Shown: positions 2,466-60,167 of the stretch, piece after piece
Position numbering within the stretch: position 1 is the first letter of the stretch
Layout: the number at the start of each line of letters is the position of its first letter
Assembly (NCBI GenBank): GCA_963717465.1
Contig: OY970340.1
Span: 1,248,001-1,312,000 of the forward strand
Source: Candidatus Bathyarchaeota archaeon
GTDB lineage: Archaea > Thermoproteota > Bathyarchaeia > Bathyarchaeales > Bathycorpusculaceae
Reading direction: 5' to 3'
DNA: 64,000 nt
Position numbers and translations under genes: made by a program
The notes under the pieces: generated by a model
What the model was told of the DNA's origin: nothing
What the model saw: only the letters and a program-made list of their open reading frames with translations
Databases searched by the model: none

Positions 2466-3524
2466 TTGACTTCAACTTACCATTACATGCAGCTTCCAAG
2501 GGAAGTGATTGTTGGGAAAGGAACAATTACACGGGTTCCCGAAGTTGTAAGACGGCTTGGACTTAGCGGGAAAGCCTTGATAATTGCAGGCGAAAAAAGC
2601 CATGAGCTAGCGGGGAAAAAGGTCTGCGAGTTTCTTGAAAAAGCAGGTATGAAATCTGATATTATAATTATTAAAGCTATAACGATGAAAGATGTTTTCG
2701 ACATAGAAGATGAGATTGAAAAGTTAAGGCCTCAAGTCATATTCGGTGTCGGTGGAGGAACAAAAATCGATGCAGCAAAAATTTGTTCTGAAAGCCAAGG
2801 TTTGCCTTTTATTAGTGTGCCGACGACTGTTTCTCATGATGGAATTGCAAGTCCCCTTGCTTCTATTAAGGGGTCAAATAAGCCGTACTCAATCTTAACT
2901 CAGGCACCTTTAGCGGTTATAGCGGATACTGATATTATTTCTCAAGCGCCTTGGCGTTCAGTTATTAGTGGTTGTGGAGACGTAATTGCCAAGTTTACTG
3001 CTGTTAAGGATTGGAAGTTGGCGCATGTAGATAACAGCGAGTACTATGGCGGGTACGCTGCTAGTTTAGCTCTGATGAGTGCAAAATTAGTCATTGAAAA
3101 CTCCAAGTTTTTTGTAGAAGGAAACGATGAGGGACTGCGTGTTCTTCTTGAAGCATTAATCAGCTGCGGAGTGGCAATGAGCATCGCGGGAAGCAGTCGT
3201 CCATGCAGTGGTTCAGAACACTTGTTCAGTCACGCCTTAGACATCGTTAACTCCCATCATGCGATGCATGGTGAACAATGCGGTGTCGGCTCAATTTTAA
3301 CTGCTTATCTCCACCATTCAAAGTGGCTAAAAATTAAGAGCACGCTCAAGAAGATTGGTGCTCCAACAACCGCTCAAGAACTAGGCATTAAAGATGAAGA
3401 ATTAATTAGGGCGTTGGAGGTTGCTGTGACAATTAGGCCCGAACGTTACACTATTCTCCATAAACTTAGTCTTAGTTTTGAGGAATGTGAGAAAGCAGCT
3501 AAAGAAACTGGAACAATAAATTAA
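2466..3524 (+). CDS. egsA: sn-glycerol-1-phosphate dehydrogenase
   Basis: GVGGGTKID, PTTVSHDGIASP, SSRPCSGSEHLFSHALD, HGEQCG. Confidence 0.95.
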   Translation: MTSTYHYMQLPREVIVGKGTITRVPEVVRRLGLSGKALIIAGEKSHELAGKKVCEFLEKAGMKSDIIIIKAITMKDVFDIEDEIEKLRPQVIFGVGGGTKIDAAKICSESQGLPFISVPTTVSHDGIASPLASIKGSNKPYSILTQAPLAVIADTDIISQAPWRSVISGCGDVIAKFTAVKDWKLAHVDNSEYYGGYAASLALMSAKLVIENSKFFVEGNDEGLRVLLEALISCGVAMSIAGSSRPCSGSEHLFSHALDIVNSHHAMHGEQCGVGSILTAYLHHSKWLKIKSTLKKIGAPTTAQELGIKDEELIRALEVAVTIRPERYTILHKLSLSFEECEKAAKETGTIN

Positions 3525-6523: not shown

Positions 6524-7342
6524 CTATTTTTTCTCTTTAAAAGTAGCTGCCTTTAAGCTATGTGCCGTTTCTTCAAGTTCCTTAAGCATCAAATCAGCCT
6601 TATTCTCATTCTTAGCGATAATGTTTACGAAGGCGCTTCCAACTATGACTCCGTCGGCTCCTGCCTCGATTATGAGCTTAACATGTTCAGGCTTTGATAT
6701 GCCAAATCCAACAGCCAACGGAATGCTCCCGGAAATTAGAGGCAAAACACGTTCAACTAGCTTTACCGTTTCCTTTTCCACTACCGATTTTGCCCCAGTT
6801 ACTCCGAAATGTGAAACCAGATAAAGAAATCCTGAAGAGTAAGCAACAATTTTTTTGAACCGTTCATCAGACGTTGACGGTGCCGCCAAAAAAATGGTAT
6901 CTAGCCCGCATGCGACTGCGGCTTTCTTGTAGTCACCTGCTTCTTCGACTGGTAAATCTGGAATTATTATGCCATCAACCATGCAATCTTTAGCAGAATG
7001 GCAAAAATGGTTAAGTCCCATCCTGAACACTGGATTATAGTAAGTCATGACTATCACTGGTAATTCATGTTTACTTTTAATTTGTTTAGCAACCTCTAAA
7101 ACTTTAACGGGTGTTGTGCCAGATTGTAAGGCACGCAGACTTGCTGCCTGTATTGTAGGTCCGTCAGCAATCGGGTCAGAAAATGGAAGTCCAAGTTCTA
7201 GAATATCGACGCCTCCTTTGATTAGGGCGTCAGCAATCTTGGGCGTTAGCTCTAGTTTTGGGTCGCCGGCTGTGACGTAGCCGATAAGTGCTCCACTTTC
7301 TTTGGCTTTTGTTTTCTGAAATGCTTTGCTTATAGTTTTCAT
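6524..7342 (-). CDS. trpA: Tryptophan synthase alpha chain
   Basis: [29 protein letters not shown]. Confidence 0.97.
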
Positions 7343-8536
7343 ATTTTTTCACCGATAAAGTCCGCTATTGTATTCACATCCTTGTCTCCACGTCCAGAAA
7401 GAGTCACAACAATCGCTTTATTCTTCGGCATTTTCTTTGCCAGTTTCATTGCAAAAGCAACTGCGTGAGCAGATTCCAAGGCGGGCAAAATCCCTTCCTC
7501 ATGTGACAGCGCCAAAAAAGCATCGACTGCTTCCTTATCCGTTATTGAAGCGTACTGTGCTCTTTTAATCGATTTCAAGAAAGAATGTTCTGGTCCAACT
7601 CCTGGGTAATCAAGCCCTGCTGAGACGCTGTGAGTGCTGCTTATTTGCCCAAACTCGTCTTGAAGGATATATGTTAACATGCCGTGAAAAACTCCTTCCA
7701 TTCCTCCGCTGAGTGACGCAGCATGTTTGCCCGTGTCTAATCCTTGACCAGCCGCTTCAACGCCGTATAGTTCCACGGTTTTTTCATCTTCAAACGGGTA
7801 AAAAGTACCCATTGCATTGCTTCCGCCGCCTACGCAAGCAACTAATGCATCAGGGTATCTTCCCTCTTTTTGCATGAACTGTTTTTTCAGTTCCTTTCCG
7901 ATTATGCTTTGAAAATCCCTAACTATCATAGGATACGGGTGAGGACCCACAACTGAACCAATCAAGTAGTATGTATCCTTGAGGTTTGTAACCCAATCCC
8001 TAAATGCTTCATTAATCGAATCCTTAAGCGTTTTAGAGCCTGAATCAACCGAATGCACTTGGGCACCTAAAAGTTTCATTCGGAAAACGTTCAGTTTCTG
8101 GCGCTCACAATCTTCAGTCCCCATGTAAACTTCAGCCTTCAAACCCAAAGTTGCACAAGCAATAGCAGTAGCAACGCCATGTTGACCGGCTCCAGTTTCA
8201 GCTATGACCCGTGTTTTGCCCATGCGTCTTAGCCAGCAAAGCCTGTCCAATAGTATTGTTTATTTTATGTGCGCCGCCGTGAGCTAAATCTTCACGCTTT
8301 AGAAAGATTTTTGCTCCGCCAATTCTCCTTGTCATATTTTGTGCATAATATAGTGGTGTTGGTCTTCCAACGAACTCTGATAGGTAATATGCAAGTTCTT
8401 TTTTAAACGTAGGATCTTTTTGCGCTTGTTTGTATGCTTCTTCCAACTCTTTTATTGCTTCCATGAGAATTTCTGGAACGAAGCGTCCGCCATATTTTCC
8501 ATATTTCCCATTAACTGGGTAACTTTCAAGTTTCAT
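7339..8536 (-). CDS. trpB: Tryptophan synthase beta chain (one frameshift near 8228)
   Basis: [38 protein letters not shown] across two frames. Confidence 0.95.
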
Positions 8537-16108: not shown

Positions 16109-17981
16109 TTGAGTATGCTAGGGTACTTTAACAAACTTCTAAGAGTAGATTTAAACACAAAAAAGATAACCGAAGAAAAAATAGAAGATGACACTCTAAA
16201 AACTTGGGTAGGGGGCACAGGTTTAGGATTAAAAATATTGTATGATGAGGTCCCAAAGGGAGTCGACGCTCTGGACCCTGAAAATAGGATAATATTTGCT
16301 ACAGGTCCTCTTACTGGAACAGCTACACCTGGGTCTGGCACTTACTGTCTTGTTTCTAAATCACCGTTAACTAATTGTGTTGCATCCGCTCAAGCCAACG
16401 GGTTTTTCGGCGCTCGGCTTAAAAAAGCTGGTTACGATGCTATTGTAATTCAAGGAGCCTCTGATAAACCCGTATACTTATGGGTGCATGATGGTGCAGC
16501 AGAAATTCGTGATGCTGAAAAATTTTGGGGTACTACTACCACATTGGAATGCGAAGAAAAGGTTAAGGAAGATTTAAACCAAAAAAATGCAAGCGTTGCA
16601 TGTATTGGTCCTGCCGGCGAGAACTTGGTGAGGTGTGCTTCAGTATTTAGTGATTTTGGCCATGTTGCCTCTTCAGGCGGTTTAGGAGCTGTTTTAGGCT
16701 CAAAGAAACTCAAAGCTATAGCAGTACTTGGAACGCAGAAAATCACTCTAGCAGACGAGCAAGAACTAAAAGCAGCCGCTAAAAGGTTGGTAGATGCTAA
16801 TAAGGAATCCATGTACGGGCAAATTTTACCTACGTCAGGTACAGCCGGTCAGTTTGCAATGGTTGTTGAACAAGGCTTGATTCCACACAAGAATTGTACA
16901 ACAAACGTTTACCCACCTGGAGTGCCAGAAAACTTTGCAAACCAAAGAAATACTGTTGATCGGTAAGCGGAATTCATGTTGGGCGTGTCCGATGGATCAC
17001 TGCCAAATTTTTACAATTAAAGAAGGCCCACATAAAGGGTTAGTTTTAGAAGAACCAGAATATGAAGACCTTTCTGGCTGGGGGTTCAATATAGGGAATT
17101 ATGATCTTGCAGAAGCTATGTATCTTACCCATGTAAACGATGGTTTAGGAATGGATGTAAAAGAGGCCTCATGGCTGATTAGCTTTGCAATGGAATGCTA
17201 TGAAAATGGCATATTAGGAATGGAAGACACGGAGGGCATAGAGCTTAAGTGGGGAGACACTAAGGCAGTGGAAACACTTCTTGGAAAGATTGCTAGAAGG
17301 CAGAGTATATTGGGAAACACTTTGGCTGAGGGCATAAAGAGGGCTTCTTACTTGCTGGGTGCGCCAGATAGGGCAGTCTACTGCTAAGAATGCAGGCATG
17401 CATGTGGTCGACTTTAGAAGCATGATCCAAGTTCTATTTGACATGGGTGTTTCTGAAACAGCTTCTGGTCAGGGTAATAGCGCGAGCTCGCTACACCTGA
17501 TCCAGAAGTAGAGGGTTTAATGAAAGAAGTTTATGTAAAGGGTTTAAATACACCATTTGTGCTTGGCAGATTTTCCAAAAGCAACTTCATAAACAGTCTC
17601 ATAATATGCTTCTTTAACGTAAACATTGCAATGGAACCAATTATGTTTGAGCCTCATGTGTTAGACTTAGTGAGAGCTGCTACAGGCTGGAAAGACTACA
17701 CCCTTCAAGATGCTCTGGCGGTTTCCGAAAAAATCATACAATTGGCGAGGGTATTTAACATAAAGCAAGGACTTACTCCAGAGGATGATACACCATCTCC
17801 CAGATTGCTTGAGCCTCCAGTAGATGGCCCATCAGAAGGTATAACGATGAAACAAGTCTACAAGGGACTATTATCGGCATATTATAGAATTATGGGTTGG
17901 GATGAGAAAACAGGTAAACCTCTAAAGAGTACTTTAGAAAATGTCGGCTTAGGCTATTGCTATAAAGATATTTACCCTTAA
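16109..17981 (+). CDS. Aldehyde:ferredoxin oxidoreductase family (W/Mo-pterin); frameshifts near 16955, 17380, 17490
   Basis: KSPLT, CIGPAGENLV, GSKKLKAIAV, CWACPMDHC, EPEYE, MGWDEKTGKP. Confidence 0.9.
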
Positions 17982-21476: not shown

Positions 21477-23342
21477 TTATTTCCACAAATCATTCGCTAT
21501 TTCATTTAAGTCAAGCTGTATAAGCTTGTTTTTCGAAGGCTTACCGGTTTCCCAATCCCAATCCATTAACTTGTTGTACTCCTGCACCATGTCTTTTAGG
21601 TATGAAGCAATCGAATGCCCTTTTGCACCACCATCCGGCGGAGCCTCCAAAAATCTAGGTGAGACATCCAAATCCATTTCAGGCAAAAACCCATGCCTAA
21701 CATTAAATGCCCTCTGAACGTTAGCAATTCTCTCGCCAACAATTAACATTTCCTCAACACTAAGAGGCCACCCAGTGAGAGCAGTATACGCTTTAGACAT
21801 AGTATCCAAACTTACACAGCCCCACAAGCAGACACCCAACGTATCTATCGCAAGCTTCTTACACTGTGTCCGACGCGCAGCATCACTTTTCCCAGCAATC
21901 TCAAAAGGATCCAACGGCTCATTAATCCCAATTTCCGCATCTGTTTGCAAATCAGAACCTCCACTTTCATGCCTGGGACCTGCACCTCCAATGCAAAACC
22001 CTAAAAACATCCCCCACATAGCCCTCATATCATGCGCATGGTTCGATTCTCCTTTAATATGAGACGCAAAACTCGAGGCTTCTTTGCCACCTATTTTCTC
22101 TGGTCCAGCTTTCAACCCTAATGCCAGAATATCACCTATCCCTTCCCGGTAAGCTATTCTTCTCAGAAGTTCTGCCGCAGCTTTTTCATCACCCCAGCGG
22201 AGCTCCAATCCATTAAGGTTATCCTTGTTAAGTATGCCTTTCTCGTATGCTTCTATTGCCCAGCTTACTATTGAACCAGCCCAATTACCGTCAAAGCCCA
22301 ATTTATCCACATAATCAGTTAACCACAATACCGATCCAGGATCACTTATTCCGATGAGTGATCCTAAGTTTGTGCAATCTTCTAATTCTGGTTCCTCCCC
22401 TACAAACCCTGTATACGGGCCCTCGGTAACTTCCATCAGGTTAACATGTGCTATGGAGCAGCCAAAACATGGTTTTCGCGTAACTTTAAACTTCTCGCGC
22501 ATATAGTACCCTGTTAATTTTTCAACCCCTGGGAAAACTCCAGTTTGAAAATTCTTTACTGGTACATCACCCATTTCATGCATCGGCTCAAGAACTGCAG
22601 CAGTTCCAGCCGAGTTAAGCAATCCGGTCATCATTGCTGATTCACTCTCTTCCCGCCACTTCTTAGCTAACTCTCTAAACTCTTCTGGGTTTGCAATGGG
22701 AATTTTTCCTGTCCCATGAACAGCAATTGCTTTAAGACGCTTAGAGCCCATAACTATTCCGACGTTGCCTTTAGCTGCGATGTGGCCGTAATCATTCTCT
22801 ATACAGGCACTAGCACAAAGGTTTTCTCCGGCTGGACCAATAGCTAAAACATGGGGAGCGCTTTTCTGGTTTAATTCCTTCTTAATGAAGTCTTCAGTCT
22901 CAAACGTATTTGCTTTTCCCCAGATTTTGCTTGCGTCACGAATTTCATATTGACCATCGTGTATCCATAGATATACTGGTTTTTCAGAGGCGCCTTGTAT
23001 TATAATGCCGTCGTATCCAGCGAACTTGAGGTTTGCACCCCAAAAACCGTGAGAGTTAGCAACGGCTATGTTGCAACCGGTTATTGGGTTTAATGATATT
23101 ACTTGAAAGTTGGATGGTGATTGGACCATTGTACCTGTAAAGGGGCCGGTCATGAAGATAAGCCGATTTTCCGGGTCTGTCGCTTTTACTTCTGGAGAAA
23201 CTTCCTCATACATAATTTTTGCCCCGATGCCGAGTTGTCCGATAAACTTCTTCAAAAAGTTATCATCAAGTTTTTCTTCTACTATCTTTTTATTGGAAAG
23301 ATTCACGCGTAATAATTTGCCCATGCATCCCCCAAGTGTCAT
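21477..23342 (-). CDS. Aldehyde:ferredoxin oxidoreductase family protein, intact
   Basis: IGPAGENL, MGSKRLKAIAV, CFGCSIAH, EPELE, WDWETGKP. Confidence 0.93.
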   Translation of the reverse strand: MTLGGCMGKLLRVNLSNKKIVEEKLDDNFLKKFIGQLGIGAKIMYEEVSPEVKATDPENRLIFMTGPFTGTMVQSPSNFQVISLNPITGCNIAVANSHGFWGANLKFAGYDGIIIQGASEKPVYLWIHDGQYEIRDASKIWGKANTFETEDFIKKELNQKSAPHVLAIGPAGENLCASACIENDYGHIAAKGNVGIVMGSKRLKAIAVHGTGKIPIANPEEFRELAKKWREESESAMMTGLLNSAGTAAVLEPMHEMGDVPVKNFQTGVFPGVEKLTGYYMREKFKVTRKPCFGCSIAHVNLMEVTEGPYTGFVGEEPELEDCTNLGSLIGISDPGSVLWLTDYVDKLGFDGNWAGSIVSWAIEAYEKGILNKDNLNGLELRWGDEKAAAELLRRIAYREGIGDILALGLKAGPEKIGGKEASSFASHIKGESNHAHDMRAMWGMFLGFCIGGAGPRHESGGSDLQTDAEIGINEPLDPFEIAGKSDAARRTQCKKLAIDTLGVCLWGCVSLDTMSKAYTALTGWPLSVEEMLIVGERIANVQRAFNVRHGFLPEMDLDVSPRFLEAPPDGGAKGHSIASYLKDMVQEYNKLMDWDWETGKPSKNKLIQLDLNEIANDLWK

Positions 23343-37089: not shown

Positions 37090-38152
37090 TTAGTGATCGG
37101 CATAGTATTTGGCAATGGCTTCAAAGGATTCTTTTGGTTCCCATGGCATATCAGGATAAGTTTTGCCGTGCTTTCCATCATCGTAATATTTCACTAAGCT
37201 TGAGCTTGCCATGTTCTAGGTCAAAGTATGGGTTTTCAGAGTAAGGAGTAATCTGGGATATGAATTGAGATATGAATGCACCCTCTACTCCAGCTTTATC
37301 CAAAACATTGAGCTGATCAACGAGTTGACTGACTTGCCAAGCTTCGTCTCTGACATAATTGCCGCGAAGATGTGGACGCACTAATAAACCTATCAATGGT
37401 AATTGATGGAGAAACTGAGACCTGACATCAATTATGTTCGTGTTCAGACCCGCGGAACCTAATAGGCCTTCTGAGCCGATTCCTCCTTGATATGTTGCGT
37501 AGCCAAACTCAGTTATAACGACTGGTTTGCTAAAGGCAAAAAGCGGCTTCATCATGTCTACATATTGATCTTTGATTCGCTCGATTCGATAATGGTCGAC
37601 TCCTACAAAATCGAATATGTTCCAATCTACCGCTTCAAAAATTAGTGAAACGTACGTAAGCTTCCCCTGAAACTCTTTTCTAACAGCCTTATTTACGGAA
37701 AACAAATAGTCATTTAATGGTTTGTTGTGCTCTCCAGCCATTATACCTGATTTTAAGTTTGGGTTCTTAATGCGTGAAACAAAGTTCCTGCCCTCAATTA
37801 TTCCATTCATAAACAAAGTTAACTCAGAACCGACGCTGAGCACTATGGAATCTGACCAACGCTTATGCAAGGTTTCTGCCGCTATAGCGACTTTGCTCAT
37901 GTACTTAAGTGTCTTCTCTGGGCTTTTGTTCCACATTTGGGGAGAAAGCCAAACTTCCAAACCCTGTCTAAGAGCATCCTCAGCGATAGTTATCAAACGA
38001 TCAATGCTAAGACCACAGATTCTAACTGCATTGCAATGCAAATCATTCTTCATAATCTCCAGCTCTTGATGGACAATCCTTGGATTAAAATCAGGACGCC
38101 AATTATAACCCATTGAACATCCGACATCATAAGAAACTCCCTTTCGCTTCAT
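37090..38152 (-). CDS. Glycoside-hydrolase-like TIM-barrel protein (family often labelled abortive infection protein); frameshift near 37215
   Basis: KGVSYDVG, DLHCNAVRI, SVGSELTLF, VITEFG; C-terminus DMPWEPKESFEAIAKYY in the shifted frame. Confidence 0.7.
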
Positions 38153-38348
38153 TTTCTCATCTTTTCTAAACCTTACTCTGTATATCTTTTGTGCCGAATT
38201 TTCTTTAAATTTTCTGATTTCTATTAAATTTTAATTGAATAATTTTCAGATTTTTTCATGTTGCTCTAATTTAACTTTGCAGTGTTAATTATTAAATCGA
38301 AATAATGATTTTATATTTGACCTTTATTTTTATTGGTGGAGGGCTGAG

Positions 38349-41127
38349 GTGAATAGGGAGTTGGCAACGGGAGTTTTTTTAACTGGTAGTAATGGTTTCA
38401 TCGGTACGCAGATTGCCAGAAACCTGATTCTTGAAACGAATTCCCAAATTACGGCTTTAGTTAGAGGTGAAAATCAGGAAAATGCTGTTCTGCGCCTTAA
38501 AAGGGCTTGGTGGGAATGGCCAGAGTTGAAAGATCAAGTTGGCAAGCGTGTTGTTGTCCTTAATGGGGATTTGTCAGCGCCTAACATGAGTTTGTCCGAT
38601 TCCGATTATGATTATCTCGTTAATGATACTTCTTATGTCATTCATGCGGCTGCCAATACGACTCCCAATTTGCAATTGGAGGAACTTGAGAAAATAAATG
38701 TTGTTGGATCAGCCAACATAATGGAGCTTGCTAAAAAAATTCAGAATGACCATGGATTGAAGCGGCTTTCGCATATTTCTACGGCTTTTGTTGCTGGTCG
38801 GCGAGATGAATCAATCAGCGAAAACGACCTTACTGATAAATATGGTTTCAGCAGCCTTTATGAGAAAACAAAGTATCAAAGCGAGCTACTGATGAATGAT
38901 GCAAGAAACGTATTGCCCATTTCGATTTTTAGACCAAGTCTCGTAGTAGGGGATTCAAAAACCGGCGCCATAAGGACGTTTAACACGGTTTACTACATGA
39001 TAAAACTGTACATGACTGGGCACCTTAGGCTGGCGCCAGCTTCACCAGCACTTAAAATAAACATTGTTCCAGTGGACTATGTTGCCGACTCAGTTGTCAA
39101 ACTAACGTTTGATGATAAAGCAAGCGGTTTAACCTTTCATCTTACATCACCAGCTGACAAGACGCCAACTGCTTCCGAACTATTCAAGTATGTCCGGGTG
39201 TGGGCAAGAGATAATATGAAATTGAATTTGCCAAATCTCATTTTTGCTCCATCGTTAGGAAAGGCAACGCAAAGCTATCTTTCGCTCACAAGCCATCAAA
39301 ATCCATCCGCTAAGAAAATCAATGACGCCTTTAAGACGCTATCACCCTATTTCAGTCAAAACAAAGATTTCAAGCGTGAAAATATAGATCGACTGATGGG
39401 ACCTTACACCCTTAACTGGATGGATTATCTTGGAAACTTGCTTCAATACGCTGTTCACTATAGCTTCTTCCACCGCTCTGAAAGAACAGTACATGAGCAA
39501 ATTCTATTTCGTCTGCAAAGCGAAGCAAAGCCAATAACTTACCATGAAATATGCGACGGAAAAGTCATCACTTATAAAACAAAGGACGTGCGAGATGAAA
39601 TATTAACAGTAGCCGCCGCCATGAAAAACATGGGCATTAAAAAAGGCGACGCTGTAGCTATAATAACACCTAATACCATTCGATACTTACTGGTTGACGT
39701 TGCCACCGGCTTGTTAGGTGCAGTTCTAAGCCCGTTGTACATCACAACACCGGTTGCAGAACTGAAAAAGATTCTTGCAGAGAATAAAGCAAAAATCTTG
39801 TTCGTAGGATCCGCTAAACTTTTGAAAGAAATTGCCAAAATAAACATCGATATAACAATTGTTTCTCTTCTTAAAGAGCACTTTGACTCAAAAGAATTCG
39901 ATCAAGTATTATCTTGGCAGCAATTCGTGAGCAAATCAAACAATGAGAAAGTATCTGATATGGGACCTATGGGTTTTGAGGACCTCGCAACGATACGGTA
40001 CACTTATGGATCAACAGGTGACTCCAAAGGTGCATGCCTTGAACACGGCGGCCTACGCTATCTTGCAGAGTCTTTAGCCTCAAATCTTCCTTGGAAGATT
40101 CGAAACTCGGAAATTCGTTACCTTTCGTTTCTTCCTTTAAACCATGTCGCCGAAGGCATAAATGCAGCATATGCTCCTTACTATGTTCCAGCCAAGATTG
40201 ACCTTTACTATCTTGAAGATTTCAAATTCTTGCAGCAAGCTCTTAGAATAACAAGACCGAGCATATTCTTTTCTATTCCAAGGTTTTACGAGAAACTCTG
40301 GGAAGCCTTGTTAGCTAATCCAGTAGGGAAACGTTATGTCGAAGCAAAAAACGGGCTTGTGAAGAATTTACTAAGAAGATTGGTGCATAATAGTCTCCTT
40401 AGTAAGTCGGGCTTAGATGAATGTTCCGAATTCATTGTGGGAGCGGCTTGTACAAGTGACATATTGATTAAGAATTTTAAAGACTTAGGGATTGAAATAC
40501 AGAATGCGTATGGGCTGTCGGAAGCGCCTCTTGTTACTATGAACAGGCTTGGTTTAAGCAAAGCAGATACGGTGGGTCCACCGCTTTTAGGTACTAACAT
40601 ACGCATTGATGAAGATGGCGAAGTTCTAATCAAGGGACCACAAGTAATGAAAGGATATCTTGGTTCTAAAAAAGAACAGCCTTTCAAGAACGGTTGGCTG
40701 GCAACTGGGGACATTGGAGAAATAACAGTTGATGGGCATTTAAAAATAAATGGGCGGAAGAAAACATATTCTCGTCACTTCATATGGCAAAAAGATTCCA
40801 GTTGATAAGATTGAAGCTTCACTAAAAACGATTGAATGCGTGAAAGATGCTTTGCTTGTAGGTAACAATCAGCCTTATTGCAGTGCGGTTATTTGGGTTG
40901 ACAAGAATGAGCCCTATGATAAAACGAAAATAGCTCAAGCAATCGATGAAATCAATAAAGGCCTTGAAGGACCAGCGCAAATTAAACGCTTTGAAATAGT
41001 GGAAGAAGAATACTCAAAAACACCCGAAGACAGCTTAAAAATAAAAAGGCAAGACTTGCTTCAGAAAGCAGAGAAGACTATCGAACTTATATATTCTCCT
41101 CAAAACGCAAGCACCCAAATTAACTAA
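38349..41127 (+). CDS. Thioester reductase (NAD_binding_4) fused to a long-chain acyl-CoA synthetase-like adenylation domain; frameshift near 40765
   Basis: TGSNGFIG, HAAA, HISTAFV, YEKTK; then YTYGSTGDSKG, SFLPLNH, YGLSE, GEVLIKGPQVMKGY, ATGD, GRK, LKIKR. Confidence 0.88.
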
Positions 41128-41608: not shown

Positions 41609-42619
41609 ATGAAAAATATGAAAATCTTTATGACGGGTGCCAGTGGATTTATTGGCCAACAGGTCGCTAATATTCTGTTGGAAAAGGGTCATGACCTTGT
41701 GTGCTTAACGCACCAGAAGAGCATAGACAATGCCCGCATCAAAACGGTGCAGGGTAACATCTTGGATAAAAACTCCTTGATAGCCATGAAAGGCTGCGAT
41801 GCGGTTATTGCTGCCGCCGCCGTTTACGTGATCGGACCGACAAAACCGGTGCGTCGGACCATGCATGACATCAACGTGACTGGCGCCAAAAACACCTTGG
41901 ATTTAGCCGTAGAATTGGGAATCCCCAAAATAGTCTATGTGTCCTCGATCGTGGTGTTCAATGACACCACGCCCTTCGGCGTCGCGAGTGAAAAAGATTT
42001 GGGAAATTATGCGAAACCGTGTTGGACGCTGTATGGCCAAACCAAACGGGATGCGCATATTTACGCCCAAAAGCTGATCGATGAAAAACACGCCCCGATT
42101 GTGATAGCAATGCCAAGCATGGTATTTGGGGAAGATGATCATTCCGTGACTGATGCTTTTCTCAAGCAAATTGTGCAAGGAACCTTAATGGGACAGATTC
42201 AATTTAAAGTGAGCGAAAATTTTAATTATGTGACAGATGTCGCGCAGGGAATTGTGCTCTGTTTGGAGAAAGGAACCCCTGGCCCGTATATCATCGGGGG
42301 GCCACCCGAAAATAATTTAAATCCCAGTACGTTTCTGGAAAAATGTGCGCAAGCGGGGGGATATCAACTACCAAAGCGAAGCTTCTCAGTGCGCGCGTTA
42401 AGCATATTTGAGAAATTCTATCGATTGCGGGGGGCCATCACAGGCAAGTATGAGACTGTCAATGCCGAATTGATCAAAATGAATTATTCTAACCTCCAAG
42501 TATCCAACGCCAAGGCGGTTCGGGAATTAGGATATCAACCCCGCCCCATCGAAGAGGGCATTCAGCGCACTATGGCGTGGTACAAGCAAAAATATGACAA
42601 ACGAGTGGCGGAATCGTAA
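41609..42619 (+). CDS. NAD-dependent epimerase/dehydratase (HpnA/DFR-like extended SDR)
   Basis: TGASGFIG, YVSS, YGQTK, KAVRELGYQPR; visibly higher GC than its flanks. Confidence 0.88.
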   Translation: MKNMKIFMTGASGFIGQQVANILLEKGHDLVCLTHQKSIDNARIKTVQGNILDKNSLIAMKGCDAVIAAAAVYVIGPTKPVRRTMHDINVTGAKNTLDLAVELGIPKIVYVSSIVVFNDTTPFGVASEKDLGNYAKPCWTLYGQTKRDAHIYAQKLIDEKHAPIVIAMPSMVFGEDDHSVTDAFLKQIVQGTLMGQIQFKVSENFNYVTDVAQGIVLCLEKGTPGPYIIGGPPENNLNPSTFLEKCAQAGGYQLPKRSFSVRALSIFEKFYRLRGAITGKYETVNAELIKMNYSNLQVSNAKAVRELGYQPRPIEEGIQRTMAWYKQKYDKRVAES

Positions 42620-43230: not shown

Positions 43231-43283
43231 TTTTCGAAAATAACATATATTCAATAGTATTTTAATGATTATTGGAGTATTTC

Positions 43284-43904
43284 ATGTCAGCGCTAAACAA
43301 GATCGCCTTCTACCAGAATAGGCGTGATGATGTTCCTAACCAGCAGCTTGCCAAAGAACTTGCGCAAACAGAAAACAAATCAGGCATAGCTGAACTCGCC
43401 AGTAACCTGCAAAACAAGAACAAGAACGTCCAAAGCGATTGCCTCAAGGTTCTGTACGAAATCGGCTACCTTAAACCTGAACTTATCGCTGATTGTGTAT
43501 CTGATTTTTTAGGATTACTTAAGAGTAAGAATAACCGTTTGGTGTGGGGCTCCATGATTGCACTTGCAACAATCGCAGACAAAAAACCAAAAGAAATTTA
43601 CGATAACCTTGAAGATGTTATATCGCATAGTAGATAAGGGACACTTATCACTGTAGTGTGGGGCGTAAAAGCCTTAGCCAAAGTTGCAGCTGCAGACAAA
43701 ACTTACAAACAAAAAATTTTTCCGTTCTTACTCAAACAGCTTAAAAATTGTATTCCACGTGATTTACCTGTTCACGTTGAAAGTATCTTGCCTGCCATTG
43801 ATGACCAAAATAAACAGGAAGTTCTCCGCATCATCGAGGCAAGAAAATCAGAAATGACATCCTCGCAACTTGCAAGGCTAAAGAAGGTTACAAAGAAGAT
43901 TTAG
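43284..43904 (+). CDS. HEAT-repeat-like hypothetical protein (frameshift near 43630)
   Basis: RRDDVPNQQLAKELA, DCLKVLYEIG, NNRLVWG; helical repeats. Confidence 0.7.
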
Positions 43905-46625: not shown

Positions 46626-47374
46626 ATGTTTATGAATATATTAGAAACTGAGAACTTGTCAGTTAAAGTTGAGAATAAGCTGATCTTAAAAGACGTGAAT
46701 TTCAGCTTGAAAGCTGGCGTTAGTCACATTCTTTTTGGACCTAACGGTTCAGGGAAAACAACGCTTATCAGTACGCTTATGGGGCTTCCAGGATACGAGG
46801 TTGTTTCGGGAAAAATACTTTTCACTGGCATAGATATAACCAGCAAAAGCTGTTGAAGAAAGAGCAAAACTGGGTATGGTTGTAAGTTTCCAGAATCCTC
46901 CAGAAATAACTGGTGTAAAGCTTGGTGACCTGCTTAAGCTTTGTTTGGGTAAATCTTCAACTGATGAATTCAACTATGGAAGAGAAGAGAATGATTGATA
47001 TTTTTAGGCTTAACGACTTTTTGGGTAGAGACATAAATGTTGGTTTTTCTGGAGGAGAGCGGAAACGCAGTGAGATACTTCAACTTATTTTCCTTAAACC
47101 AAAACTTATGCTTCTTGATGAACCTGACAGTGGCGTAGATGTTGAGAGTCTTAAGCTTATTGCATCGGAAATTCAACGCTATGTGGAAGGCTCAAAGAGT
47201 TCAGCGTTGATTATTACGCATAAAGGCGATATTCTGGAATATGTGAAAGCTGAGTATGGCTGCATTTTGCTTGATGGCCAATTCTACTGCTACAAAGACC
47301 CAAGCGGAATATACAATGATATTAAAAAACAGGGCTACGAGGGATGTGTAGCCTGTCGACACAGGGTGATATAA
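46626..47374 (+). CDS. sufC: Fe-S assembly ATPase SufC/SmsC (frameshifted)
   Basis: GPNGSGKT, FSGGERKR, LDEPDSGVD, C-terminal GYEGCVAC. Confidence 0.88.
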
Positions 47375-49635: not shown

Positions 49636-50082
49636 ATGAAATGTCCCTATTGTGGCTCTGAAAATTTCAAAACGTTGGAGACACGCGATTCCCCAGAGAA
49701 CACTACGCGTAGACGGAAAGAGTGCATCAGTTGCAGTAAGCGCTTTACAACTTACGAGTACTTGGAAACTATAGAGTTTATGGTGAAAAAGAAAGATGGT
49801 AAGCTTGAGCGTTTTGACGTTAACAAGATAATTCGAGGTCTACAAAAAGCGTGTGAAAAAAGACCTGTAACTATGAATCAAATCAACGAGTTAGCAGCCC
49901 TTGTGCGGCAAGACCTCATGATTAAAGGTGCAGAAGAAGTTGCGTCTCAAGAAATCGGGGATTTAGTAATGAAATACCTTAAAAAAATTGATAGAATAGC
50001 GTACATCCGATTTGCCTCAGTTTATAAAGAATTTGAGGAGCCTGAAGATTTCAGGCGGTTATTGCTTGAGGTGAAAAAATGA
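49636..50082 (+). CDS. nrdR: Transcriptional repressor NrdR
   Basis: MKCPYC, RRRKEC..CSKRFTTYE, ATP cone, AYIRFASVY. Confidence 0.96.
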   Translation: MKCPYCGSENFKTLETRDSPENTTRRRKECISCSKRFTTYEYLETIEFMVKKKDGKLERFDVNKIIRGLQKACEKRPVTMNQINELAALVRQDLMIKGAEEVASQEIGDLVMKYLKKIDRIAYIRFASVYKEFEEPEDFRRLLLEVKK

Positions 50083-52211
50083 AATATGTATTAAAAAGAG
50101 ATAGTAAACTAGAACAATTCGATCAAGAAAGAATTACAACCGCCATTTGGAAAGCGGCTAAAGCCGTTGGCGGAAAAGATAAAGAGCAAGCGAAAAGAAT
50201 AAGCGACGAGGTAGTTGTTGAGCTTCACAAACGCTTCGGCGAAGACGGAGTGCCTACTGTTGAAGAAATTCAAGATATCGTTGAAAAACGGTTAATTGAA
50301 AATGGACATGCACAGACAGCTAAAGCCTACATCCTTTACAGAAAGCAGCATAATGATATGCGTGAGTTAGCTGCACTTTTAAGCTCTGCAGATATGGTGG
50401 ACCAGTACCTTGAGGTCGAGGACTGGCGTGTTAAAGAGAACTCGAACATGAGTTATTCACTTCAGGGTTTAAACAATTATTTATCATCAACTGTTATAGC
50501 GAAATACTGGATATCCCGAATTTACCCATCGAATATTGCTGACGCCCACTTTTCAGGCGACATTCATATCCATGACTTAGGCGTTCTTGGACCATACTGT
50601 GTTGGCTGGGATTTAAGCGACCTACTACTTTCAGGATTCGGCGGCGTCTCGGGAAAAATTGAAAGCAAACCAGCAAAGCATTTCCGCACAGCTTTAGGTC
50701 AAGTTGTGAATTTCTTCTATACGCTGCAAGGTGAAGCTGCAGGCGCTCAAGCATTCAGCAACTTTGACACTTATCTTGCACCATTCATACGGTACGATAA
50801 CTTAAACCAAAAAGAAGTGGAACAGGCACTGCAAGAATTCTTTTTCAACATGAATGTTCCAACAAGAGTTGGTTTTCAAACACCATTCACGAATTTAACT
50901 TTGGATTTAACAGTTCCAGACTTCATGAAGAACGAGGCAGTTCTCTACAACGGTAAACTTGCTCCTGACACGTACGCTGACATGTCTAAAGAGATGGAAA
51001 TGTTCAATTCAGCTTTCGCAGAAGTCATGCTTCAGGGAGATTCTAAAGGCAGAGTCTTCACTTTCCCAATACCCACCTACAATATCACCAAAGATTTTGA
51101 TTGGGATCAAAAGTTGCAAAAGGAATCTTTGAAGTAACAGCCAAGTACGGCGTGCCCTACTTCTCAAACTTCATCAATAGCGACATGAAACCAGAAGATG
51201 TTCGAAGCATGTGTTGCCGCCTTAGAATAGACAACCGTGAACTGCGCAAACGAGGCGGTGGATTCTTCGGCGCTAATCCACTCACAGGCAGCATAGGCGT
51301 AGTTACTCTGAACATTCCAAGAATTGGCTACCTATCAAAGAACGAAGACGAATTCTTCGAACGCCTAGGAAATGTTATGGACGTTGCTAAATCAAGTTTG
51401 GAAATTAAACGTAAGATGCTTGAAGCATTTACCGACAATGGTCTTTACCCCTATTCACGACATTACCTACGCCACATTAAAGAAGGCTATGGAAAATACT
51501 GGAAGAACCACTTCGCAACCATAGGTGTAGTCGGAGTAAACGAAGGCGTCATTAACCTGTTAGGCCAAAATATTGCTACAAAAGAGGGGCAGAACTTTGC
51601 AGTTAAAATGCTCACTTTCATGCGCAATCGCTTATCAGACTATCCAAGGGGAAACAGGAAACATCTACAATCTTGAAGCAACACCCGCAGAGGGGACATC
51701 TTATCGCCTTGCACGCATCGATAAACGCCGATACCCAGCTATAATTATGGCAAACCAAAAACAGGTGATAGCAAATCATGCAGAGCCATTCTACACTAAC
51801 TCTTCACAGTTACCAGTAGATTATAACGGCGACTTGTTTGAAGCATTGGAGCACCAGGAAAGCCTTCAAACACTGTACACGGGAGGAACAGTATTCCATA
51901 TTTTCCTTGGCGAACGACTGCATTCTTGGCAATCAGCTGCTGAATTAATCAAGAAAGTCGCGTATAATTCCCATTTACCATACTTCACGTTAACGCCTAC
52001 ATTCAGTATTTGCCCGACACATGGTTACACAAGCGGTGAACATTCACAATGTCCAATCTGTGGTTCAAAAAGCGAAATCTACTCTCGAGTTGTCGGCTAC
52101 TTAAGACCAGTTGACCAATGGAACGATGGAAAACAAGCAGAATTCTCAATACGCAAAACCTTCGACAAATCAACCATGATGAATACCGTACCTATGCCCA
52201 TTTCAACTTAA
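50079..52211 (+). CDS. nrdD: Class III anaerobic ribonucleotide reductase with ATP cone (frameshifts near 51100 and 51645)
   Basis: VLKRD ATP cone, RSMCCRL, EATPAEG, CPTHG..CPIC, SRVVGYLRP glycyl-radical motif. Confidence 0.95.
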
Positions 52212-59162: not shown

Positions 59163-60167
59163 ATGCAATTTCAATTATTTTTGAGGATGCTCTTTTTGAA
59201 AGCCGCTGTCTACCATGGTCCACATAAAATTAAAATTGATGAAGTTGAAGAACCAAAAATTTTAGGCACAAAGGTCCTTGTAAAATTTAAGGCTGGAGGC
59301 ATTTGCGGGACTGACATGCACTTTTACAGGGGCGACTGGAAAATCAAAAAAGGAAGAATAATCGGGCACGACGCATGCGGAGTGCGGGAAGATACTGGCG
59401 AACGCGTAGTTATGGTTCCGGTTTTAAATTGTGGTCACTGCTACTTTTGTTTAAGAGGCTTGCCAGCAAGCTGCGTGCATGGAAAGTTTTATGGGATAAC
59501 GAGTGATGGATTTTTCGCAGATAGTAAAGCGTTAAGCCCGAGGAGCCTAATTCCTATACCAGCGAACGTTGACGATGAGGAAGCCGCGGTTGTGGAACCA
59601 GTAGCGTTGGCGCTTCGTACGCTAGATTATCTCAAGCCAAACGTGGCTGATTGGGTAACCATTATTGGTCTAGGGCCAATAGGCTTGTTGATGACGCAGA
59701 TTGCTCATCTTAAGAGTTGCAAAGTCATAGCTATTGATTTGAAAGATGACCGGCTGGAACTTGCCCAAAAGTTTGGTGCAGACGCAGTTATTAACGCGCA
59801 AAAAGAAGACACAATTGAAACAGTAAGGATGCTAACAAAGAAAGGATCCGACATCGTGATTGAATCAGCTGGGACAGTCAAAACCGTGGAGCAGACGCCA
59901 TTCATAGTGAGGAAAGCTGGAAAGGTTGCTTTAGTAGGCGAATCTGAGGGCTATTTGAACCTTGGCAATGCAAGGGAAGCATTGTTTTTCACAATTTATA
60001 TTTCGCCTGTAGAGTACCCGTTGGCGGTTGAGTTAATCGCTAAAAAAGAAGTGGACGTAAAGAGCTTGATATCTCACAGGTTCAAGTTGGACAATTTCGA
60101 AAATGCACTGCAAACAATCGAGTCTCAGGTTCAAAAACCGTTGAAAGTAATTATAACCGATAAGTGA
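59163..60167 (+). CDS. Zinc-dependent alcohol dehydrogenase (MDR family)
   Basis: GICGTD, GHD, CGHCYFC..C, GLGPIG. Confidence 0.9.
   Translation: MQFQLFLRMLFLKAAVYHGPHKIKIDEVEEPKILGTKVLVKFKAGGICGTDMHFYRGDWKIKKGRIIGHDACGVREDTGERVVMVPVLNCGHCYFCLRGLPASCVHGKFYGITSDGFFADSKALSPRSLIPIPANVDDEEAAVVEPVALALRTLDYLKPNVADWVTIIGLGPIGLLMTQIAHLKSCKVIAIDLKDDRLELAQKFGADAVINAQKEDTIETVRMLTKKGSDIVIESAGTVKTVEQTPFIVRKAGKVALVGESEGYLNLGNAREALFFTIYISPVEYPLAVELIAKKEVDVKSLISHRFKLDNFENALQTIESQVQKPLKVIITDK

Follow-up and report, generated by a model that had tools for sequence, protein, structure and literature searches.

A carrier-less fusion of a thioester reductase and an acyl-CoA ligase in Bathyarchaeia, predicted to reduce hydrophobic acids by way of free CoA

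Introduction

Can a carboxylic acid be activated and reduced by a single protein that carries no phosphopantetheine carrier domain? The question is raised by a locus at 38349..41127 of a 64,000-nucleotide stretch of contig OY970340.1 (positions 1,248,001 to 1,312,000; GenBank assembly GCA_963717465.1) from a Candidatus Bathyarchaeota archaeon. The whole of this stretch is here called the window. At this locus a terminal thioester-reductase (R) domain is followed by an adenylation (A) domain of the acyl-CoA-ligase type. Carboxylic acid reductases (CARs), in which the two activities are also combined, are in wide use as biocatalysts but depend on a carrier domain and on a helper transferase.

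An initial annotation, made from the sequence of the window, described an R-A protein with no carrier in an archaeon and compared it with CARs and with the myxobacterial enzyme ElbD. The analysis reported here establishes that the window protein belongs to an uncharacterised family of carrier-less R-A proteins, given that a one-base break in its reading frame is read through. From its domain content, the fusion is predicted to catalyse the CoA-relayed reduction of a hydrophobic acid to an aldehyde, possibly an alcohol; the probability of this reading is put at about 0.6.

Results

Domains and motifs of the R-A protein

The locus consists of two open reading frames (ORFs), both on the forward strand, as are all features of the gene given below. 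ORF1 (38349..40805, 818 aa) encodes the entire reductase domain and, up to motif A8, the large N-terminal portion of the adenylation domain, and ORF2 (40750..41127, 125 aa), in the +1 frame, encodes the C-terminal subdomain of the ligase. Only if the one-base break between the frames is read through do reductase and ligase form a single gene, whose product would have about 925 aa. The initial annotation had implied such a break by its wording of a repaired gene, and the motifs that it named (TGSNGFIG, ST, YEKTK and YTYGSTGDSKG) were all found, with the reductase N-terminal to the ligase.

The R domain is complete and occupies residues 1 to about 375 (38349..39473), as judged from Pfam and an AlphaFold model. 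Its NAD_binding_4 match (PF07993) covers residues 11-248 (38379-39092) with an E-value of 6.4e-52 and 177 bits, against a cut-off of 20. The Rossmann motif TGSNGFIG is at residues 12-19 (38382..38405), where T12, G13, G16 and F17 are invariant in the homolog alignment; S144-T145 are present, and the catalytic YxxxK motif is YEKTK at residues 171-175 (Y171, K175; 38859..38873). G13, G16, Y171, E172 and K175 are invariant in all 58 aligned sequences, including those of stand-alone reductases. The domain therefore has the features of a terminal thioester reductase, namely the Rossmann GxxGxxG, the catalytic Tyr/Lys pair and the fold with its C-terminal subdomain.

The motif FFHRSERTVHEQ at residues 373-384 (39465..39500) marks the transition from the R domain to the first helix of the A domain. 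This junction is the most conserved stretch of the family, with F373, H375, S377, R379, T380, V381, E383 and Q384 invariant.

The adenylation domain was matched by AMP-binding (PF00501) over residues 402-771 (39552..40661; E 1e-47, 163 bits, above the cut-off), so that the reductase-before-ligase order first described is borne out, and ORF2 by AMP-binding_C_3 (PF23562; E 9e-10, 39 bits, also above the cut-off). Sequence matches of this domain in the PDB are the CAR A domain, fatty-acyl-CoA synthetases (FACS) and malonyl-CoA synthetase. The P-loop, motif A3, is YTYGSTGDSKG at residues 551-561 (39999..40031), which differs from the YTSGTTGxPKG of the remainder of the family. It had been called atypical, and in this sense it is; but G554, S555, T556, G557, K560 and G561 are invariant in all 24 aligned sequences of the subclade, in all of which the variant is kept, so that it is a variant of the clade and not a sign of decay. 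Motif A5, NAYGLSEA, is at residues 719-726 (40503..40526), and A720, Y721, G722, E725, A726 and P727 are invariant. Motifs A7 (TGD, residues 786-788) and A8 (GRKK, residues 802-805) delimit the stretch NGWLATGDIGEITVDGHLKINGRKK (40704..40763), in which T786, G787, D788, G802, R803, K804 and K805 are invariant in the homolog alignment and which resembles the FACS signature motif. The lysine motif of the A10 region, LKIKR (41035..41049), lies in ORF2, and LKxKR is nearly invariant in homologs.

Core motifs A3, A5, A7, A8 and A10 are thus all conserved, and the features of a long-chain acyl-CoA synthetase (PF00501 with PF23562, COG1022-like) are present. On the basis of PF23562, of the FACS-like stretch and of the JGI name 'long-chain acyl-CoA synthetase', the ligase is assigned by its sequence to the long-chain fatty-acyl-CoA-synthetase type.

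Absence of a carrier domain

No phosphopantetheine-binding (PP-binding) family was found by Pfam in the window protein. Among the 120 best hits from a collection of 5.8 billion proteins, precomputed Pfam lists gave PF07993 and PF00501 for all 120 and PF00550 for none, in agreement with the original description of a carrier-less protein. A longer form of the family with a carrier was looked for among proteins of 1433-4090 aa, and only distant non-ribosomal peptide synthetases (NRPS), polyketide synthases (PKS) and ElbD-like proteins were present there.

The limits of the two domains were defined from unfused relatives and from structure prediction. In the cluster-representative library, stand-alone reductases of 370-390 aa align to residues 8-380 of the query, and stand-alone ligases of 545-610 aa align from about residue 380-410 onward. 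The AlphaFold model of residues 1-400 (pLDDT 90.6, pTM 0.89) had as its top match the complete R domain of MxaA (4u7w), with TM 0.79/0.80 over 384 columns and an rmsd of 3.1; a PKS thioreductase, the rice fatty acyl reductase DPW and CAR reductase domains came next. The full-length model of the 70%-identical homolog P0002 is a single confident body (pLDDT 86.8, pTM 0.85) with no extra domain. In it, a helix at 377-385, the first of the ligase, lies within the junction stretch, and the ligase half resembles ANL enzymes in the adenylate-forming state. A Foldseek search with this full-length model returned ligase-domain matches only (TMq no higher than 0.50) and no solved structure with the R-A arrangement. 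With the last residue of the R fold at about 375 and the first of the ligase at about 380, there is no room for a carrier between them.

Nature of the frame break

The two frames part at a run of four A (40761..40764; cgg aag aaa / a cat att) within the GRKK motif. ORF1 reads ...INGRKK and then continues with 13 unrelated, out-of-frame codons before a stop, and ORF2 reads GGRKHILVTSYGKKIPVDKIE..., where intact homologs have INGRKK-H/N-[IL][IV]VT[SA]YGKKIPV in the alignment. Three A at this position would give GRKKHILVTSYGKK, which matches the homologs; a single surplus A in the run thus explains the whole break.

ORF2 is 69% identical to the corresponding part of the intact homolog P0002, as are the 818 aa before the break. 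In addition, at least four other genes of the window are frame-broken: NrdD (50079-52211, three ORFs matching Pfam profile positions 1-218, 224-400 and 397-562), a SufC-like ATPase (46626-47374, two ORFs), one copy of aldehyde:ferredoxin oxidoreductase (AOR; 16109-17981, three ORFs) and, probably, TrpB (7342-8536, two ORFs). Short homopolymer runs were seen at or beside all three of the breaks that were inspected, that of SufC and both of NrdD. The genome, a single contig of 3.05 Mb with an estimated completeness of only 88%, seems to be an assembly rich in indel errors. Since conservation is undiminished beyond the break and other genes of the window are broken too, the break at 40761-40764 is most likely an assembly (sequencing) error, in which case the gene would be working in the organism.

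A true pseudogene, in which the extra A is real and only a truncated protein without the C-terminal ligase subdomain is made, is considered unlikely. It would agree with the deposited sequence, which does carry the broken frame, and with a gene that is accessory and patchy in distribution; two copies from other genomes are interrupted as well, one in three pieces (G012) and one by a single internal TAA (G262, C15:289194-291389). However, normally indispensable genes (NrdD, SufC and probably TrpB) are broken alike in the same window, and decay does not continue past the break, identity being 69% on both sides of it.

A further irregularity of the window lies at 43272-43904, where a HEAT/Cnd1-like ORF ends at an in-frame stop (43635-43637) and an 82-aa ORF resumes in the same frame from 43656. 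Either the stop is genuine, or it is due to a substitution error, or two genes are present.

Family and distribution

More than 100 intact homologs, mostly of 905-983 aa and all in the same R-A order, were found at 46-70% identity over 96-98% of the query, with E-values down to 0, so that the matches are far beyond chance. In genome contigs, 327 stretches encode a relative, not all of which need be fusions. Among the best 80 of these 327, to which all counts out of 80 loci refer, both halves were matched in 76, the other four being cut by contig ends; at 73 of the 80 a single ORF of 800 aa or more contains both halves, and the remaining loci are either truncated at contig ends or split. By its size, its domain order and the junction motif FFHRSERTVHEQ, the window protein is a member of this family once the break is read through.

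Among the archaeal hosts are many Bathyarchaeia, Methanobacterium (M. oryzae DSM 11106 and strain ACI-7 among others), Methanocella, Thermoplasmata, Methanomassiliicoccaceae and Methanomethylicaceae, and among the bacterial ones Chloroflexota, Acidobacteriota, Bacillota, Vecturithrix and a Sphingomonadaceae bin. The combination of NAD_binding_4 and AMP-binding without PP-binding, for which the initial annotation had suggested an architecture search, is therefore widespread and no one-off. The host of the window is itself an archaeon, as first stated: the window contains genes for LSm, L37e and Rpo5, and the nearest named relatives are Bathyarchaeia.

In a FastTree phylogeny of 74 full-length sequences, the window protein fell into a clade of 10 made up of Bathyarchaeia only (support 100), and the long stem of this clade (0.46) sets it apart from all others. 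A metagenome scan with the single protein gave no relative; with the alignment it gave 73 loci, none closer than 59%, and the closest ones were on short contigs. The source names of the family are generic, such as 'SDR family oxidoreductase' (SDR, short-chain dehydrogenase/reductase), 'AMP-binding protein' and 'long-chain acyl-CoA synthetase', and no paper on a carrier-less R-A enzyme was found in the full-text literature searched, which largely leaves out subscription journals.

Comparison with known enzymes

CARs (Nocardia, Segniliparus, Mycobacterium; PDB 5msc, 5mso and 5msp) likewise join an ANL adenylation domain and a TIGR01746-type reductase in one polypeptide, and their net chemistry, acid + ATP + NADPH to aldehyde, is the same as that predicted here. 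In the PDB, the ligase half has its best sequence match in a CAR A domain, and a CAR R domain ranks among the best matches of the reductase half. The domain order of CARs is nevertheless A-T-R, with adenylation first and a PP-binding domain (T) between A and R, which neither the window protein nor the 120 homologs have. CARs also need a phosphopantetheinyl transferase (PPTase), for which no PF01648 match was found in the 88% complete genome of the window. The R-A ligase, unlike that of CAR, has a C-terminal subdomain of the fatty-acyl-CoA-synthetase type (PF23562), and free CoA would take the place of the swinging arm. The NCBIfam model for CAR (NF041592) gave 124 bits, far from its cut-off of 1300.

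The reductase precedes the ligase in ElbD of Myxococcus xanthus, an ether-lipid enzyme for which PMC9131029 gives the order FAR-ACS-ACP-AGPAT; PMC11948995 and bioRxiv 10.64898/2026.06.23.733905 also give R before A. The comparison with ElbD made in the initial annotation is therefore right in outline, as regards both the order within one protein and the additional acyl carrier protein (ACP) and AGPAT domains, but the relationship is not a close one: ElbD-like proteins and the R-A family share 27-28% identity, over parts of the sequence, and differ in the subfamilies of both domains, the ElbD-like reductase being of the eukaryote-like fatty acyl reductase (FAR) type. ElbD-like proteins (e.g. 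P0121, 1457 aa) additionally carry PF03015, PF13193, PF00550 and PF01553, and in ElbD the ACP and AGPAT-like domains follow the ligase, whereas the window protein ends after AMP-binding_C_3. The neighbours of the elb operon, the HAD hydrolase ElbB and the epimerase-family protein ElbE, are not conserved beside the R-A gene. A truncated ElbD was considered as an identity for the window protein and ruled out on the grounds of the low identity and the different domain subfamilies.

Separate enzymes, FadD/FACS together with a FAR (Maqu_2220-type, or plant DPW, PDB 7eoz), would follow the same predicted two-step route via free acyl-CoA, and rice DPW is a top structural match of the reductase half. 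In the R-A family, however, the two steps are fused through a rigid and highly conserved junction, and the reductase is nearer to the terminal reductase domains of PKS and NRPS, such as MxaA, than to FARs. The terminal reductase of MxaA (myxalamid PKS-NRPS, 4u7w) is the best match of residues 1-400 by sequence (E 3.7e-28) as well as by fold. It receives its substrate from a fused carrier, whereas the R domain is here N-terminal and is followed by a CoA ligase.

Predicted reaction and its setting in the genome

The ligase domain would convert acid, ATP and free CoA to acyl-CoA, and the reductase domain would then use NAD(P)H to convert the acyl-CoA to an aldehyde and perhaps further to an alcohol. 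MxaA makes its alcohol by way of the aldehyde. The substrates are probably medium- or long-chain aliphatic acids.

The setting of this chemistry was examined by six-frame family searches of the one-contig genome, to whose completeness of 88% all absences given here are subject. Neither PP-binding (PF00550; control positive in 11 of 14 genomes) nor an ACPS-type PPTase (PF01648; control positive in 10 of 14) was found in it, which makes a carrier acting in trans unlikely. The genome likewise gave no match to a PlsC-type acyltransferase or an acyl-CoA dehydrogenase, so that acyl-CoA formed by the ligase has no evident user besides the fused reductase. A search for WS/DGAT gave no match, but its control likewise matched in no genome. 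AMP-binding was matched four times; the other three matches are in open frames of 658, 449 and 438 aa, which are probably one acetyl-CoA-synthetase-like and two short genes and not long-chain ligases.

The same absences bear on the identity of the acceptor thiol. Were it not CoA, an unrecognised type of carrier protein or a small thiol such as pantetheine could serve instead; the COG1022-like ligase type does include acyl-ACP synthetases, one PDB match (8hsy) spans residues 405-895, and those relatives of the R domain that have solved structures act on carrier-bound substrates. This is nevertheless judged highly improbable, as PP-binding and PPTase matches were not found in the genome, the conserved cassette of the relatives (see below) contains no carrier gene, and CoA is presumably the thiol common to the archaeal and bacterial hosts of the family.

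As for the physiological role, the enzyme may, speculatively, serve a dedicated conversion of free fatty acids imported by the cell, whether to remove toxic long-chain acids or to obtain an aldehyde or alcohol product. Such a use is favoured since neither beta-oxidation nor acyl-lipid genes were seen in the genome; a role in fatty-alcohol lipids finds no backing in an acyl-lipid pathway, of which the genome gives no sign (no PlsC-type acyltransferase).

Gene neighbourhood

Most relatives outside the clade of the window protein are encoded in a tight cassette of overlapping genes (e.g. L041:6054-13169, also L042, L061, L096 and about 50 other loci). The R-A gene is preceded in it by a gene for a polysaccharide-pyruvyl-transferase-like protein (408 aa; position -1 in 61 of 80 loci) and followed by genes for an ATC-hydrolase-like protein (203 aa; +1 in 51 of 80) and a GMC/FAD-oxidoreductase-like protein (434 aa; +2 in 52 of 80). 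The cassette, often preceded by a TetR regulator and then closed by a small protein of unknown or SRPBCC type, is common to Bathyarchaeia, Methanobacterium, Thermoplasmata, Chloroflexota, Acidobacteriota and Bacillota. In the genome of the window, the queries used gave no match for the GMC-like and ATC-hydrolase-like partners, and for the pyruvyl-transferase-like one only a weak match of 26%.

This cassette is one reason to consider that the two domains might not act in sequence, the ligase supplying acyl-CoA or acyl-adenylate to another enzyme and the SDR reducing a different group, an aldehyde or a ketone. Most R-A genes do sit with these partners of unknown role, the reductase scores under the TIGR01746 cut-off, and terminal reductase domains also reduce aldehydes to alcohols. 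We regard such a division of labour as improbable, though, as fusion and junction motif are kept throughout the family, the fold is that of a thioester reductase (MxaA at the top, CAR next, sugar epimerases lower), and no other enzyme using long-chain acyl-CoA was found in the genome.

Within the clade of the window protein, six loci (L026:4820-7348 and L021-L025) have an ArsR-type helix-turn-helix (HTH) gene and a gene for a 667-671-aa beta-propeller (PF09826) upstream of the R-A gene. Neither gene is present in the window, and the window and three other loci have no conserved neighbour. Among 97 loci, no neighbour from the window recurs beside R-A genes, weak histidine-kinase matches apart.

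A gene downstream, on the same strand and 481 bases away, encodes an SDR (41609-42619) of the HpnA-like NAD-dependent epimerase/dehydratase family (TIGR03466, 160 bits, below the cut-off). No relative of it was found at E<=1e-30 in 40 related genomes, and it may be another acquired gene. It was considered as an ElbE-like partner and rejected, given this result and its lack of recurrence beside R-A genes; without recurrence in the 97 loci, the analogy to ElbE does not hold. The divergent gene upstream (37178-38152, reverse strand) encodes 324 aa without a Pfam or NCBIfam match; it has a 51%-identical paralog at 2066923-2067885 of the same genome (G000) and homologs in eight of 24 genus genomes. 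It was rejected as a partner, since a fused R-A gene is missing from seven of these eight genomes and the remaining one (G009) has no more than a fragment at a contig end.

Upstream of the GTG start, a TATA-like TTTATATT (38310-38317) and a purine-rich GGTGGAGGG (38335-38343), both on the forward strand, were noted by eye only, as patterns that are not evidence of function. A scan for bacterial-type promoters and terminators, a type unsuited to an archaeon, gave counts not above those of shuffled sequence.

The window also contains genes that handle aldehydes or alcohols (2466-3524, 16109-17981, 21477-23342 and 59163-60167), which are those of an Fe-dependent alcohol dehydrogenase (Fe-ADH), an intact and a split AOR and a Zn-ADH; no connection of these with the R-A gene was shown. 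A gene for an IS240-type DDE transposase (392 aa) is at 719-1897.

The reaction could in principle run in reverse, the aldehyde being oxidised to acyl-CoA and this giving acid and ATP from AMP and PPi. The host is an anaerobe with the aldehyde-handling genes just listed nearby, and AMP-forming ligases can run backwards in some syntrophs. Nonetheless this direction is the least probable of the alternatives considered: we know of no precedent for a terminal-type reductase acting as a CoA-acylating aldehyde dehydrogenase, and no result of the analysis supports it.

Discussion

The R-A fusion, read as an enzyme of CoA-relayed acid reduction, is consistent with a complete thioester-reductase fold, a ligase with all its core motifs, a conserved junction and the absence of a carrier from protein, family and genome. 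Several points weigh against this reading. The estimated completeness of 88% weakens every absence from the genome, and the frame break at 40761-40764 could be real; the R-A copy of a genus genome (G012, C4:65349-67738) is split into three pieces too. The reductase reaches 170.4 bits on TIGR01746, below the curated cut-off of 213.35, and its closest solved relatives (MxaA, CAR, PKS and NRPS domains) act on carrier-bound thioesters, not on free acyl-CoA. The gene is accessory, present in six of 24 other genomes of the genus and in two of 300 others drawn evenly from the class. At the window locus the cassette partners are absent, and the context gives no help on the role. Finally, no assayed member of the family was found in the literature searched, so that the chemistry is deduced from domain homology.

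A broader proposal, which we hold to have an even chance, is that the family represents a natural carboxylic acid reductase without carrier or PPTase, in which CoA would shuttle between two rigidly fused sites. It would provide a route from free fatty acids to aldehydes or alcohols in archaea that lack ACP, and in its cassette form it would be the core of a small-molecule pathway common to methanogens, Bathyarchaeia and anaerobic bacteria. The R-A family is apparently uncharacterised though widespread, with the window copy outside the usual cassette. These expectations are tempered by the fact that the function is read from domain content and that public databases already contain the architecture, albeit under generic names.

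If the prediction is right, a natural fusion using free CoA would be simpler to use than a CAR, and would constitute a second way of coupling adenylation to reduction. As cultured strains within the family exist (Methanobacterium oryzae DSM 11106 and Methanobacterium sp. ACI-7), the prediction is directly testable. It would also mean that chemistry for handling fatty acids is present in archaea with isoprenoid membranes, in this genome without detectable genes of beta-oxidation or acyl lipids, and it would raise the question of what such archaea do with fatty acids.

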